The translations under genes and the position numbers were made by a program. From Alphaproteobacteria bacterium (GTDB taxonomy: Bacteria > Pseudomonadota > Alphaproteobacteria > UBA828), in assembly GCA_965220745.1 (NCBI GenBank), contig CBDCQT010000010.1, positions 160,001 to 224,000 on the forward strand: a DNA stretch of 64,000 nt, in the 5' to 3' direction. Shown here one piece after another: positions 1 through 6,258 of this stretch. Within the stretch, counting starts at the first letter, position 1. The number at the start of each line of letters is the position of its first letter. Below the pieces are notes generated by a model, which saw nothing but the letters and a program-made list of their open reading frames with translations, made no database searches and was not told the DNA's origin.

Positions 1-1153
1 CGAGGAACTCGAAGGCGCTCTCGCCGAGGCCGAGGAAGAGGCCCCGTCGAGCACGGAGCGAACACCGCGCGCGAAGCGCCCCGCCGCGGAACGCAACATC
101 GGCGATCTTCCGGCCCACCTGCCGCGCTCCTATAGGCTGGTCGAGCCCGAGAGCACGCAGTGCCCGTGCGGTTGCGGCGAGATGACCAAGATCGGCGAGG
201 ACCGCACCGAGCGGCTGGACATCATTCCGGCGCAGCTTCTGGTCATCGTCACCATCCGGCCGAAGTACGCCTGCCGCGCGTGCGAGGAGGGCGTCACCCA
301 GGCGCCGGCGCCGGGGCACCTTGTCGAGGGCGGTCTGCCCACCGAGGGCATGCTCGCCCACGTGCTGGTGTCGAAGTTCGCCGACCACCTTCCTCTATAC
401 CGTCAGTCGCAGATCTACGCCCGCTCGGGGATCGAGCTGCACCGCTCGACGCTGGCCGACTGGGTCGGCAAGGCGTCGTTCCACTTGCGGCCCGTGTTCG
501 ACTGCCTGAAGGGAGAGTTGAAGACGTCGAGCAACCTCGGCCTGGACGAGACCACGGTTCGGGTTCTCGACCCGGGCCGGGGCAAGACCAAGACCGGCTA
601 CATGTGGACGATGACGCGCGACGGGCGGGGCTGGTCCGGGGCCGATCCGCCGGGCGTGGTCTATGAGTATGCGCCCGGCCGCAGCGGCAAGCATGGCGAG
701 GACCTTCTCGAGGGCTTCAAGGGGACGGTACAGGTCGACGGCTATTCCGGTCACAACCGGCTGCGCCGGCCGGACCGGCCGGGTGGGGCGCTGACGCTGG
801 CGGCATGCTGGACCCACGCGAGGCGCGGCTTGAAGGAGGTGTTCGACAGCAACGCCTCGCCGATCGCGGCGGAGGGTCTGAAGCGGATCGCGCAGCTCTA
901 CAAGATCGAGGACAAGATCCGGGGCAAGCCGCCGGCGACGCGCCAGTTCGTCCGGTGGACCGAGTCGGCGCCGCTGGTGAACGCCTTCGGCGTGTGGCTC
1001 GACGAGCAGCGCTCGCGCGTCTCACCGCGCTCGCGCTTGGGCGAGAAGCTCACCTACATCGCCAACCAGTGGGATGGGCTGCTGGTGTTCCTGTACGACG
1101 GGCGCGTCGAGATGGACACCAACGCCATCGAGAACCCCATCCGCCCGATCAAG
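1..1153 (+). pseudogene. tnpC: IS66 transposase TnpC, 5' part (runs off window start; interrupted by LSR element)
   Basis: CPCGC...YACRAC zinc finger, KFADHLPLYRQ, LDETT, VDGYSG, CWTHARR, DTNAIEN motifs; IS66 similarity stops at ...IRPIK (AAG 1151-1153). Confidence 0.93.
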
Positions 1154-1180
1154 ACGATGGAGTCATTCTGCACCCCTTGT

Positions 1181-3265
1181 TCAAGTGTCTGAAAACATTG
1201 ACATCTGTTCCCGGCAAGAGGATCGATGCGGATGTCGTCTCCTCCTGTTGGCCAAGGCTTGGGCGACGTTCTCGGTATGAAGGTCTGCAACCTTGATCTG
1301 CCAGGGCGCTCCGGGAACGACCTGCCGGGCGGGCAACTCTCCCATCTTGATGAGACGTCGGATGACGTGACTGGTGACGCCGAGCTCCTTCGCGGCTTCG
1401 AACATGGTGCACCAAATGCCGTCCCTGTAGGCGGGGAAATGAGCGTGAATGCCGTTCACGCGGCGGATCGAGCTGACCCGTTTGGCCGTCCAGGTCTTGT
1501 CCTGGCCGGTGCGCATGCCCATCCGGTTGAGCGACGCGGCGATATGATCGTCGGACCATCGTCCCGCCATGTTCCGCATGACCGCCAGGGCCTCATCGGA
1601 TGTCCTGCTTCCGTGCTCGCCACTCTTCGGCTTGCGAACCCTTAGCTGTGAGTGTTGGCCGCCGCGCCAATGAATCGTCAGGACGACTTCGCGGGCCTCG
1701 TCGTCGACATTGGCGACGATGTCGATGATCAATGTGCGCACGAGTCTCTGGCGTGCGCGCATGCTCACACCGGGTGCATTCCAGGCGGCTTTCAGGTCGT
1801 GGGCGAGGCCGGCCAAGTCCGGGCTAACGGCTTGAGGGTCTGGCGAGTGCATCGCTTCCAGTCGCTCCTGGCACGCCTGCACGCGCTGCAGCGCGGTCTC
1901 CCAACTCTTCTCCAGTTCGGCGGCGATCAGCCGGTTGTCGGGGTCGCAGGCGGCATAACGCCGCTCGGCGAGCGATGCTTCGTAGCGAGCTTGTTGCAGA
2001 TCGAGTTCGGCCACGTGCTGTCGTTCCCGCAGACTTTCCTCACGTGTGCGCTCGGCCTCCAGCGACGCCTCCAGCGCCATGGGCTCCACGACACGGAGGA
2101 TCTCCGCGGCAATAGCCTCATCCACCCGCGCGCCGCCAAATCCCAAACAACGCTTGAGGCCGAGATGAAGGTTCGGTCGGTCGCAACGGTAACGTGGGCG
2201 GCCGGGTCGCCCCCCGACATAGGCGACCGCCAAGCCACGGCCGCATCGACCGCACGTGAGGAGACCGCTGAGCAATGCTCGCCCGCCGCGTCCCGACTTC
2301 CTGCCCCCTGACTTGCTGTAGCTGTTTGCGGCGAGCTGTGTCTGGTTGCGCTCGAACTCCGCCCAGTCGATGTAGCCCTCGTGATGGTTCTTCAACAGAA
2401 CCTCCCACTCCTCCATCGGCTTGGCATGACCGTATGTCTTCCGCACGTACCCATTGATGATCTCGGTCCGACTCTCGTTCTTTCCATACGCGTAGACGCC
2501 GGCGTAAAAGGGATTCTTCAGCACCGAGATCACGTTGCCGTAGCGGATCGGCGTCCAATCGAACGAAACCATTGTGCTGCCATCCGACGGGCGGGGGAAG
2601 CAGAGTTGTTCCGCGGTCAGCGCCAGGAGCACCTGTCGTGCGCTGGCCAGATCGCGAAACCGCGCGAAGATCAGGCGGACCGTCTCCTGGACGCGCTTGT
2701 CGGGGTCAAGCCCCAATCCAGTGTCGCGATCCCAGACGTACCCGACGGGTACACCGATCCGGAGTTCGCCGCGCGCTGCTTTGGACGACCGGGCATCGTG
2801 CATCCGGGCGCGTAGCACACCGAGTTCGAACTCGCTGATTGTTCCCTTCATGCCGAGCAGCAAACGATCGTTGGGACGGCGCGGATCGTAGACGCCGTCA
2901 TGGTCGATGACGCGCGCGCCGACAAGACCACACAGCTCGAGAATATGGTGCCAATCTCGACCATTCCGAGCGACCCGAGACGCCTCGAAACAAAGCACTG
3001 CACCGACGTCGCCGGCACACAGCCACGCGACCAGGCGCTCGAACCCGGGTCGCGCCACCGCGCCACCGGCCGACAAGCCGAGATCCTCATCGATGATCTC
3101 GACGGCGCCGAACCCGTGGTCACGCGCGATGTCCACGAGATCGTACTGAAGGCGCTGGCTCTCAAGGTTGCCGCGGACCTGGGCAGGCGTGGATTGGCGG
3201 ACATAGACCACCGCCTTGCGGGACAGTACCGACCCCGGCAGGGAATCAGACGCGCGCATCGTCAT
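1181..3265 (-). CDS. Large serine recombinase (resolvase, recombinase, Zn-ribbon, coiled coil, C-terminal HTH)
   Basis: AVVYVRQST catalytic Ser motif, ARPGF, EASRVARN, LKNPFYAG, LLSGLLTCGRCG; GGAGG RBS. Confidence 0.95.
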   Translation of the reverse strand: MTMRASDSLPGSVLSRKAVVYVRQSTPAQVRGNLESQRLQYDLVDIARDHGFGAVEIIDEDLGLSAGGAVARPGFERLVAWLCAGDVGAVLCFEASRVARNGRDWHHILELCGLVGARVIDHDGVYDPRRPNDRLLLGMKGTISEFELGVLRARMHDARSSKAARGELRIGVPVGYVWDRDTGLGLDPDKRVQETVRLIFARFRDLASARQVLLALTAEQLCFPRPSDGSTMVSFDWTPIRYGNVISVLKNPFYAGVYAYGKNESRTEIINGYVRKTYGHAKPMEEWEVLLKNHHEGYIDWAEFERNQTQLAANSYSKSGGRKSGRGGRALLSGLLTCGRCGRGLAVAYVGGRPGRPRYRCDRPNLHLGLKRCLGFGGARVDEAIAAEILRVVEPMALEASLEAERTREESLRERQHVAELDLQQARYEASLAERRYAACDPDNRLIAAELEKSWETALQRVQACQERLEAMHSPDPQAVSPDLAGLAHDLKAAWNAPGVSMRARQRLVRTLIIDIVANVDDEAREVVLTIHWRGGQHSQLRVRKPKSGEHGSRTSDEALAVMRNMAGRWSDDHIAASLNRMGMRTGQDKTWTAKRVSSIRRVNGIHAHFPAYRDGIWCTMFEAAKELGVTSHVIRRLIKMGELPARQVVPGAPWQIKVADLHTENVAQALANRRRRHPHRSSCREQMSMFSDT

Positions 3266-3431
3266 CCTCCCGTTCCAGGATGCCCGTGGCTTCCAGCAGC
3301 ACTCCGGCCAGCGCGCCGAGCACTTCGCCCCGTTCGCTCGGGCTCAGCCCCCGCAGCTTCGGGGCGTCCAGCGCCATGCTCAACTGGCGAGGTTCGACAG
3401 GTGGAAGCTGTAGCGTCGACACAGACTTCAT
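3246..3431 (-). CDS. 61-aa hypothetical protein upstream of the LSR (MKSVSTLQLPP...)
   Basis: GAGGAG RBS before ATG 3431; overlaps LSR start. Confidence 0.55.
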   Translation of the reverse strand: MKSVSTLQLPPVEPRQLSMALDAPKLRGLSPSERGEVLGALAGVLLEATGILEREDDDARV

Positions 3432-3748
3432 CGCGAATCTCCTCGATGACGGGATGGTCATCACAGGAGCTTGCTCTGAAGCCTTGCGTAACGAGAAGCT
3501 CATGGAGTTCGCCAAGAGCGGCAAGAGACGCCCGAGGCTCACCGAGCTCCATTCCGATGCAGGCCGCCGGATCGAGCATCCAGACGGCAACCTTTATGAC
3601 TACACCCGGCTGTAGCTCGAGCAGGGCGAGTGAGCCATCGGCTCGATGCTCGACGCGCTCAAGGCGGAGACGGCGGCCGAAATGGGCGTGCCACGGGTAA
3701 TGGACGACGCAATCCTGCCCGACATGGGCAGAATGAACGGATGATGAA
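3262..3748 (-). CDS. Accessory ORF open to the element end with no ATG in its 5' part (HSAHVGQDCVVHYPWHAHFGRR...WMLDPAAC)
   Basis: Frame open from attR to TGA 3262-3264, which overlaps the LSR ATG (ATGA); in the integrated state an in-frame TGA lies just outside the element. Confidence 0.65.
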
Positions 3749-3977
3749 GCTCACGAAGAAAAACGCGCTGTTCGCCGGCAGCGATGACGGCGCCACGACC
3801 TGGGCGCGATGCGCCAGCCTGATCGGCACCTGCAAGCTCAACGGCGTCAATCCGCAGGTCTACCTGACCGACACCCTGCGCCGGATCGTCGACATGCACC
3901 CCGTGTCACGCATCGATGACCTGATGCCCTGGAACTTCACCCCGACAATCCCGAGCGTCACACGTCAACAAGGGTGA
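3747..3977 (+). pseudogene. tnpC: IS66 TnpC 3' part
   Basis: KLTKKNALFAGSDDG...SLIGTCKLNGVNPQVYL...DDLMPWNF, the classic IS66 C-terminus. Confidence 0.93.
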
Positions 3978-3992
3978 CCGCGCGGCGCTTAC
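3975..3992. repeat. IS66 right terminal inverted repeat
   Basis: Ends in CGCTTAC (reverse complement GTAAGCG), IS66 terminus consensus, just after the tnpC stop. Confidence 0.75.
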
Positions 3993-4745
3993 ACTCATCC
4001 ACGTAGCGCTGAAAGTGATTCGGGCTGATCTTGTGGAACTTGCCGGCATGGGCGCGCTTCAGCATGGACCAGAAGCTCTCCGTGTCGTTGGTGTGGGCCA
4101 TCCCGCGCATGTGCTCGCCAGCGCTGTGGTTGACGTTCTCATGGTCGAACCATGCCGCCAGTGCGTCATAAGCCTTCGATTCGTCGGTGTAGACCTTCGC
4201 CCCTAGCAGTCTGTCGGACTTCCGACTTCAGAAAGTCGTAACTATTTGATTTTTCGACATTTGTGATTTCACTACTGGAGCTATTCGATTCACGAATATC
4301 TATACTTTTCAGCACGTTACGAAAATGGCGCTCCCAAAGTCCGACAGACTGCTAGCGTGGTCTTTTCCGCGACGAAGCACGCGAGGTGGGTGGTATCGGT
4401 GCGCCTGACATACCGCGCGGCGACCTTCCCTGTCTCGCGATCCTTCGTGCCGACCACCGCGGCCTTGCCAACCGCGCCCCGGCCCGTGTCCGCCAATTCC
4501 TTCCGCTTCGCCTTGTGTCGAACTGGTGCTGGCCCCCGGGCGGGTGCGGGCCGGGCACGCGGAGCGGATGCGCTCGCCGGTCGGCGAGATGCCGTACCTC
4601 GGAATCTCGACACTGGCTGACCGCTTGTCAGACCTCCGACATTGCCGCTCGACCCAACGACCTACCGGCAGAGGGCAAGCTGCGGCAACCTGGCCATCAT
4701 GTTCCTGTAGCGTTCCAATGCGCCGCAAAACTTTTGCATTCCACT
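3993..4745 (-). pseudogene. IS1595-family transposase remnant, cut by IS66 and interrupted by a MITE
   Basis: Fragments GRGAVGKAAVVGTKDRETGKV and VYTDESKAY...HENVNHS...HTNDTESFWSMLKRA...HFQRYVDE. Confidence 0.8.
4207..4351. mobile_element. 145-bp MITE, perfect 15-bp TIRs, CTAG duplication
   Basis: CAGTCTGTCGGACTT (4207-4221) / AAGTCCGACAGACTG (4337-4351); CTAG at 4203-4206 and 4352-4355. Confidence 0.88.
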
Positions 4746-5237: not shown

Positions 5238-5489
5238 ATGAAGAAAACGTTTCAAGCAGTGACTGTCATTTCGTGCATGATTATCGGCTCGGCATTTCTC
5301 GCGCAGGATCTCCGCGCTCAAGTAGTGGGCTGTTTTGACTACTTCACCCGCACATGGGTGTGCCCCCCTACCTGCTCTACCTGGCGCGGGCAATGCCCTA
5401 TTGTCGTGCCGGGTTACTACTATCCTGGCGACCGATGCACGTGCCATTGGCCTGTTGGTCCGCCCTCTCGCGGGAGAATCATCGAATAG
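5238..5489 (+). CDS. Small secreted Cys-rich protein A
   Basis: GAGGGG RBS; signal-peptide-like N-terminus; six Cys in mature part; paralog of 6001-6258. Confidence 0.75.
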   Translation: MKKTFQAVTVISCMIIGSAFLAQDLRAQVVGCFDYFTRTWVCPPTCSTWRGQCPIVVPGYYYPGDRCTCHWPVGPPSRGRIIE

Positions 5490-5922: not shown

Positions 5923-6000
5923 TAGGGCACCTTACTAATGATACGGCTGACTACGCCCATAAACCCCGTAACGTGGCTACCCAAACGAGAGAGGCTAGAC

Positions 6001-6258
6001 ATGATGAGGTTAATTGCCATTGCCAGCTTACTTTTCGTTTTATGCGCGTCTTTGTTGACACAAACGTCGCAAGCCCAAGCGAATGAATGTTATGACTACT
6101 ATCGTGACCAATGGCGAGCTAGCGAACCTTATAGTCCATGCTGGCCCAGGTGTTATACCTCGCAGGGGTGGTGTTGGATGTCTCATCCGTGGAAGCGCCC
6201 GGGGGACAATTGTATTTGCCAGGGCCCTCATGGAAGTCGTTTCGGCGAAGTAGGTTGA
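6001..6258 (+). CDS. Small secreted Cys-rich protein B
   Basis: GAGAGG RBS; signal-peptide-like N-terminus ending SQA; same six-Cys pattern as protein A. Confidence 0.75.
   Translation: MMRLIAIASLLFVLCASLLTQTSQAQANECYDYYRDQWRASEPYSPCWPRCYTSQGWCWMSHPWKRPGDNCICQGPHGSRFGEVG

Follow-up and report, generated by a model that had tools for sequence, protein, structure and literature searches.

A minimal large-serine-recombinase element in an IS66 transposase gene, with a small gene that integration appears to split

In a 64,000-nucleotide stretch of an alphaproteobacterial genome (positions 160,001 to 224,000 of contig CBDCQT010000010.1, hereafter the window), an IS66-family transposase gene, tnpC, is split by a compact element that encodes a large serine recombinase (LSR). 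The split is confirmed, and the element very probably belongs to a widespread family of site-specific integrative elements of ~2.6 kb, in which the LSR is the sole enzyme and the attachment site in the target (attB) is the DNA of a conserved IS66 tnpC motif. We also consider it probable, from the arrangement of reading frames in the element and its relatives, that a small gene of the element (gene B) obtains its start only when the two element ends are joined, in a circle or in a tandem.

The tnpC gene is interrupted by a unit of 2596 bp, with the triplet AAG at both junctions (1151-1153 and 3747-3749). The features that define the insertion are as follows, with the strand given where it applies:

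2..1150, plus strand: 5' part of the IS66-family tnpC, up to the last codon before the crossover; the gene starts upstream of the window, near position 159705 of genome contig C10.
1151..1152: central dinucleotide AA of the left junction (attL), the proposed crossover, 10 nt from the left arm.
1153..3748, minus strand: the complete element of 2596 bp, in which the core is counted once.
1163..1171: left inverted arm, TCATTCTGC, which on the minus strand reads GCAGA-ATG-A.
3728..3736: right inverted arm, GCAGAATGA, checked by script.
3747..3748: central dinucleotide AA of the right junction (attR), 10 nt from the right arm.
3749..3977, plus strand: 3' part of tnpC, with the stop codon at 3975-3977.

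At the left junction the tnpC frame runs ...CCG ATC AAG, with the AA as the first two bases of the lysine codon, and is followed by a 10-nt spacer (1153-1162) and then the arm TCATTCTGC, while at the right junction the arm GCAGAATGA is followed by a 10-nt spacer (3737-3746), AAG, and the tnpC frame again. Both junction strings that the initial annotation of this DNA had given, CCGATC-AAG and AAG-CTCACG, are present in the sequence. The two 9-bp arms are perfectly complementary, and each lies ten bases inside the AA of its junction. Joining the inner halves by script yielded two 9-bp arms 22 nt apart, which reproduces, at positions matching the annotated strings, the attachment site of the excised form (attP) that had been proposed with its centre on AA; dyad symmetry of the joined site is 14/25 (9 consecutive) around AA vs 6/25 around AG. 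Joining the outer halves by script restored a single open tnpC frame, in agreement with the reading IRPI-K-LTKKNALF proposed earlier, and four uninterrupted tnpC genes in fetched loci (L006, L061 twice, and L064) align to this frame with no gap where the halves meet. Translation of 2-1153 matches the Pfam domains DDE_Tnp_IS66 (E 3.1e-89) and zf-IS66 (E 3.5e-18), and 3747-3974 matches DDE_Tnp_IS66_C (E 5.9e-20), so that the IS66 TnpC domain set (zf-IS66, DDE_Tnp_IS66 and the C-terminal element) is complete across the unit. The script-checked arms are not among the 25 longest listed of 115 inverted pairs. The same arms, spacing and junction geometry are found in 62 related elements of other genomes, and this recurrence argues that the pattern is more than chance. 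Contigs of the Logan collection from four runs of one sample each extend from a start between 1040 and 1088 to 4200 with no difference, and because they cross both junctions unchanged in all four runs, the insertion is not an assembly artefact. The unit is present in a single copy in the window's genome.

The element holds three genes, all on the minus strand and all with intact frames:

1181..3259, minus strand: the LSR, 692 amino acids (aa) from the second ATG, or 694 aa from the ATG at 3265.
3246..3431, minus strand: gene A, 61 codons (3431-3249) plus a stop, with its ATG at 3429-3431 after GAGGAG.
3262..3746, minus strand: gene B in its integrated copy, DUF5372-like, its frame reaching without a break from the right end of the element to a TGA stop at 3262-3264.

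The LSR matches Pfam Resolvase (PF00239, residues 18-167, E 3.5e-22), Recombinase (PF07508, E 3.3e-18) and Zn_ribbon_recom (PF13408, E 1.6e-07), the last two both above the Pfam cut-offs, and its C-terminus carries an excisionase-type helix-turn-helix (HTH; NCBIfam 'excise' at 618-661, and Pfam HTH_17 at E 2.5e-05, below cut-off). All invariant columns of a 40-sequence alignment are kept, including the serine of VYVRQS, which we take to be the nucleophile. Together with the frame-restoring junctions, these domains bear out the earlier reading of an LSR element precisely inserted in IS66 tnpC. Its earlier description as cargo-free agrees with the look of the two small genes, neither of which resembles cargo, but the element is not LSR-only: A and B are two further conserved genes beside the LSR. 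Gene A, whose 3' end overlaps the first LSR codons, encodes a protein that is kept in 49 related loci and has no Pfam or NCBIfam match. When codon-position entropy was computed from 67 aligned unique right ends, the third-position peak followed frame B from 3746 to ~3480, frame A from ~3416 to 3267, and then the LSR frame. A scan of 1000-4000 for the sigma-70 consensus, which covers one promoter type, found no promoter. Elsewhere in the same genome (C12:216152-221529) there is a distant second LSR gene, split by ~3.5 kb (residues 14-139 are 51% identical and residues 138-646 are 34% identical), which may itself carry an insertion.

The recombinase has a large number of relatives: 7986 of 8000 scored candidates matched the LSR protein at E <= 0.001, mostly at 689-696 aa, and many of the matching proteins lie on contigs of about 2.6 kb. 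Species-representative genomes contain 468 places related to the element, and at least 138 plasmid records, mostly of Rhizobium and Sinorhizobium, carry relatives that are annotated only as 'recombinase family protein' or 'hypothetical protein'; LSR proteins 94-96% identical to that of the window occur in other samples. For flank mapping, the best 80 loci (65-82% identical) were fetched, of which 50 had both flanks readable. The tnpC N-terminal part lay at the LSR 3' end and the C-terminal part beyond gene B, the orientation seen in the window, at 36 of these 50 loci; fully reversed insertions were seen at two (L039 and L052), the tnpC C-terminal part on both sides at two (L032 and L066), tnpC on one side only at eight (four of them with a decayed or truncated other half), and no tnpC at either flank at two (L030 and L056). 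Altogether tnpC stood on at least one side at 48/50 loci, although the tnpC genes at these flanks share only 31-55% identity with that of the window, and the gene was broken after N..E[RN]..R.. and before.GRKN.LF, which gives the target motif N..E[RN]..R.. / A/V/K.GRKN.LF of TnpC. The initial annotation had left open whether LSR homologs use the same tnpC codon, and they do so at these 48 loci; a scatter of homologs over unrelated sites with different ends was not seen among the flank-mapped loci.

The lineage with an AA core has no close relatives in 48 other genomes of the same order, where the best match is 59% identical. Genomes of the same genus (L155-L173) hold LSR relatives in 8/20 cases, at 37-59% identity and with up to 10 matches per genome; a B-like gene lies upstream of the relatives at >=42% identity, not one of which has tnpC at the junction. 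These are other clades with other targets. A possibility that some elements carry a replacement tnpC C-terminus, raised by tblastn matches running into the left end at 16 loci, was rejected as spurious, a poor gapped extension over the antisense LSR 3' end.

The integrated copy of gene B is unusual in that its coding signal begins at the last bases of the element (3746-3480), while the first start codon in its frame is the ATG at 3579, which is Met-62 of the conserved domain. Once the ends are joined, an ATG in the left arm (1164-1166) opens the frame of gene B, which is then read through the 22-nt spacer. Across 63 complete elements (the window and 62 loci), this arm ATG is found in 62, a junction open reading frame (ORF) of 162-178 aa in 59 (56 distinct sequences), and a Shine-Dalgarno-like purine run 4-16 nt upstream of the ATG, between the LSR stop and the arm, in all 63. 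The integrated right ends offer much less: an in-frame start is missing from the first 20 codons in 51/71 unique right ends, and among those with at least 60 nt of flank, the frame is closed by a stop without any start in 35/58, and a start occurs at scattered places in 22/58. The right end of the window belongs to the closed group, with a TGA three codons into the flank. At its other end, gene B stops with a TGA that is separated by 2 nt from the LSR start codon, and its frame passes through gene A without a stop as far as the LSR start in 48/50 elements vs 16.1 expected from synonymous resampling with the codon usage of each element's own LSR, a contrast inflated by the relatedness of the elements. 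A joined form was found in one metagenome contig (L139, 2389 bp), which contains an LSR 3' end (56% identical), the arm-22 nt-arm site, and gene B running from the arm ATG. Five of the 150 best B homologs start exactly 9 residues before an HSAH motif, as a start at the junction predicts. Some relatives in the database (P0136 and P0163) have B and A fused in one protein, and B and A therefore probably act together.

Several observations weigh against a start made at the junction. Gene B of L139 is interrupted by an IS3-family element, and because of this L139 is better seen as a lasting DNA form, perhaps a tandem, than as a transient circle. The joined form is also rare: a strict pattern had no match in metagenome contigs, a loose pattern had 71 matches there, of which 70 were chance matches in unrelated DNA and one (L139) was genuine, and there was none in viral contigs or in 401 genomes (the window's own and others of its class). 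Moreover, the left-end ATG together with some of the G-run is mirrored in the right arm, both ends reading GGGCA.AATGA, and could be kept as a recombinase binding site alone.

The strongest alternative is that gene B is translated in the integrated state, from an antisense-tnpC start in the flank or from an internal or non-canonical start, or is a mere overlapping frame, with the arm ATG held by constraint on a binding site. The arms are indeed mirror images with an ATG in both, in-frame starts do exist in the flank (22/58 right ends) or internally (20/71), and the DUF5372 gene of the related element on plasmid pNGR234a is annotated as lying wholly inside it. In addition, 18 of the 150 best B homologs start 10 residues before HSAH and have N-termini unlike the junction type; these may represent clades that are built differently and start elsewhere. 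Yet the flanking and internal starts are scattered and unconserved, more than half of the flanks (35/58, the window's included) close the frame without any start, the coding pattern from the last bases of the element implies that the conserved N-terminal half needs a start further upstream, and the junction supplies one in 62/63 elements, with the purine run in every element. We therefore regard translation in the integrated state as rather unlikely, and a start completed by joined ends as the probable reading.

What gene B encodes is less clear from sequence than from other features. It has 796 cluster representatives at E <= 0.001, and its AlphaFold model (predicted local distance difference test score, pLDDT, of 84) consists of a small five-stranded beta-barrel followed by a helix. 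In the ESM Atlas, 30/30 of the clusters nearest gene B are DUF5372, at a score of 0.93. Against this identity, the sequence match is poor: Pfam detects the domain in 2/50 homologs (best E 0.043), and comparison with the DUF5372 protein of pNGR234a gives E 0.004 at a probability of 8% with hhalign, while BLASTP of gene B against DUF5372 gives E 0.28. Assignment of gene B as a divergent DUF5372 protein is thus weak by sequence and stronger by language-model features. Foldseek found no PDB structure similar to the model at E <= 0.001, its best hits being KOW/Tudor/chromo-like barrels at E 0.05-0.5, and the wide VIA-align search gave at best Z 6.3 (NdhS, Spt5 KOW, NusG and 53BP1 Tudor), within the range common to small barrels; these predicted-structure matches indicate a generic SH3/KOW/Tudor-like fold class and no function. 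Our literature search found nothing on DUF5372.

The proposed crossover could be examined across the family by reading the core as the dinucleotide 10 nt outside each arm, with the arms as anchors. Left and right junctions carry the same core in 53/61 related elements (45 GC, 5 GT, and one each of TG, AC and CC), while the neighbouring dinucleotides are equal at both junctions in only 13/55 and 6/55, which is as expected if strands are exchanged with a 2-bp stagger at the centre of symmetry, and backs the crossover at AA that had been placed there from the window alone. The window has the only AA/AA pair among the elements examined. The core forms the first two bases of the target codon, i.e. 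GC for Ala, GT for Val, TG for Cys, AC for Thr and, in the window, AA for Lys, a codon that is unusual for the tnpC target motif. Eight of the 61 elements do not fit, having unequal left and right cores (L016, L054 and L065, with AC/GC, and L071, L018, L030, L002 and L073). Serine integrases need matching overlaps, and by analogy such copies should be locked in, without clean excision, if that rule holds here.

Orientation poses a further difficulty. Serine integrases are held to take their orientation from the central dinucleotide alone; the GC core is palindromic, and by LSR rules both orientations are therefore expected equally, yet the count is 36 forward against 2 reversed. The bias implies that insertions of the reversed kind are lost or that orientation has another determinant. 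One route to loss would be that a reversed copy is read through from the IS66 promoter and hence excises again. The loci with the tnpC C-terminal part on both sides are the outcome expected from recombination between oppositely inserted copies.

From the known chemistry of LSRs, a mechanism can be proposed in which a circle carrying attP meets the attB of a tnpC gene, the LSR cuts both with a 2-nt stagger at AA, and the half-sites are swapped. The AA of the window, not being palindromic, would have dictated which way the element inserted, leaving the LSR gene antisense to tnpC, and excision by the same LSR would restore tnpC exactly. Integration would part gene B, leaving the ATG and ribosome-binding site in the left end, after the LSR stop, and the body of the gene in the right end, so that in the integrated state B would have no start and the LSR would be translated from its own site. 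In the circle, translation of B would end at the LSR start and feed ribosomes to the LSR, raising the recombinase when re-integration is needed; the B frame being held open to the LSR start codon is our reason for proposing this feed. Recombination of attP with attB by the LSR is likewise a prediction from sequence. The broadest form of the proposal is a joint one, i.e. that the GC-core bias points to an orientation determinant beyond the textbook LSR model, that the family consists of 'core races' (GC, GT, TG, AC and AA), and that the splitting of gene B lets the element detect whether it is circular or integrated, with B as a circle-only switch, a translational counterpart of the junction promoters of insertion sequence circles; we give this combination an even chance.

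Whether the copy in the window can still move is a separate matter. Neither the attP nor the attB joint is present in contigs of the source sample (four runs, 700-4200), which hold only the integrated form, a weak point against mobility as contigs drop rare variants. Two joints that do occur in these contigs (2870 to 3818, and 4074 to 4172) were rejected as excision products, as their short sides measure 21-29 letters and are unrelated to the element ends. The copy could accordingly be a stranded relic that integrated once and interrupts tnpC permanently. In keeping with this, neither joint was seen, the element is single in its genome, and the two other tnpC genes there are 23% identical and have GT and GC at the target codon, such that an excised AA circle would find no matching site among the detected tnpC genes. 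On the other side, all three frames are intact, no invariant residue of the family alignment has changed in the LSR, the cores still match as AA/AA, a match that a locked copy would be free to lose and that 8/61 relatives have lost, and the 94-96% identical proteins of other samples imply that the lineage is recent. On balance, a stranded relic seems improbable. That it rides IS66, switches IS66 off, and does so reversibly, as the initial annotation proposed, are kept here as hypotheses; the genome has no intact IS66 of this type that could move the composite in trans.

The host IS66 copy can be compared with typical IS66 features, which include tnpA and tnpB upstream of tnpC, terminal inverted repeats, and an 8-bp target duplication. 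Upstream of tnpC there are open frames of a size fitting tnpA and tnpB (judged by size alone) and a candidate left end near genome position C10:158716, and the right end was placed with an end sequence, GTAAGCG, with which we assume that IS66 ends begin:

3984..3992: probable right end of the IS66 copy (...GGCGCTTAC).

No target duplication matching the left-end candidate and this right end was found, and the window's genome has no second or intact copy of this IS66. At 3741-3749 the right end of the LSR element places two in-frame ATG codons before the tnpC 3' part (ATG ATG AAG...), from which a 78-residue C-terminal TnpC fragment could be translated in the integrated state, as far as the sequence goes; many relatives have a spacer ending in GATG, with the same effect on their tnpC 3' part. 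On another contig of the genome (C13:657157-657258) lies a tnpC relic without its N-terminal part, which begins near the LSR target site (..LTAKNALF..) and may be the scar of a rearrangement at that site.

Beyond the IS66 right end, and abutting it, lies the remnant of an IS1595/ISXO2-like transposase gene (3961-4110, minus strand, extending to ~4600; Pfam DDE_Tnp_IS1595, E 1.9e-10), and because of this contact we read the whole as a nest in which an IS1595-like element received IS66, and IS66 in turn the LSR element. Within the remnant, at 4203-4355, there is a gene-less unit of 153 bp that is richer in AT than the DNA around it and is bounded by perfect 19-bp terminal inverted repeats (CTAGCAGTCTGTCGGACTT). 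It looks like a miniature inverted-repeat transposable element; the repeat end also occurs on contig C13 near 657080. Further along, two small ORFs on the plus strand (5238-5489 and 5938-6258) have signal-peptide-like starts and similar cysteine- and aromatic-rich mature parts, and a Pfam scan of both gave no match; they may be paralogous secreted peptides.

The family matters in several respects. LSRs are sought as enzymes for genome engineering, and here thousands of natural LSRs come with inferable attP/attB pairs, natural variation of the core, and a minimal element size. As a parasite of a parasite, the family breaks IS66 transposase genes in many bacterial phyla and may shape IS66 activity. 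It also explains many bare 'recombinase family protein' entries and many 2.6-kb contigs, and a circle-only gene, if true, would be a compact way to tell 'integrated' from 'excised'.

In the sequence of its enzyme and the build of its sites, the element is of the serine-integrase type. With integrases such as those of phiC31, Bxb1 and TP901-1, it shares the Resolvase, Recombinase and zinc-ribbon architecture, short attachment sites of imperfect dyad symmetry with a 2-bp crossover that matches between partners, and insertion in a gene that precise excision would restore. Unlike them, it measures only 2.6 kb and lacks genes for phage functions, conjugation or cargo, its attB is part of a second mobile element and hence exists in many copies and variants, and its LSR bears a C-terminal excisionase-type HTH, with no known directionality factor in the element.

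By analogy, its life style would be closest to that of the clostridial serine transposons Tn4451/Tn4453 (TnpX) and Tn5397 (TndX), in which, as in the window's family, an LSR is the only mobility enzyme, and which move through a circle that the LSR makes without a directionality factor; passage through a circle is predicted for the window's family too. In both, the circle joint would turn expression on: that of Tn4451 reportedly forms a promoter for tnpX, whereas the joint of the present family is proposed to complete a reading frame. TnpX/TndX elements furthermore carry resistance or conjugation cargo and use loose sites at a GA dinucleotide, in contrast to the absence of cargo and the one conserved target seen here. 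A loosely specific serine transposon of that kind, found in IS66 merely through the abundance of IS66, is highly improbable for the window's element, since tnpC is hit at one codon position in 48/50 loci, across tnpC genes as little as 31-55% identical to the window's, and DUF4368 is absent from the Pfam matches of the LSR, even though one locus (L056) has matching CC cores within flanks that are not tnpC and another (L030) has tnpC on neither side. A preprint by Durrant et al. ties the DUF4368 domain to multi-targeting LSRs and has it as common in the TnpX/TndX clade, in contrast to the LSR of the window. The parts available of that preprint and of the phage WO paper make no mention of LSR elements in IS66, and no description of LSR elements targeting IS66 was found in a literature search whose coverage excluded subscription journals and supplements.

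By sequence, the nearest named element appears to be that of the Sinorhizobium fredii NGR234 plasmid pNGR234a. Its LSR has 694 aa and matches that of the window at 38% identity along 649 residues, the C-terminal part among them, and the gene table of the record places a DUF5372 gene at the element end upstream of the LSR. We take this element to be NGRIS-4, a name not confirmed from the literature. It differs in that the place of gene A is taken by an HTH gene together with a small 'transposase' gene, and in a DUF5372 gene annotated as wholly internal, unlike gene B with its proposed split. In ecology, a parallel is the group II intron RmInt1 in ISRm2011-2, likewise a parasite of a parasite, for which a transposase gene serves as a safe, multi-copy and horizontally travelling landing site. 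Enzyme and chemistry differ between the two, as the element described here works with a serine recombinase and the exchange of a 2-bp core, and it is a minimal, cargo-free serine-recombinase unit specialized on the transposase gene of another mobile element.

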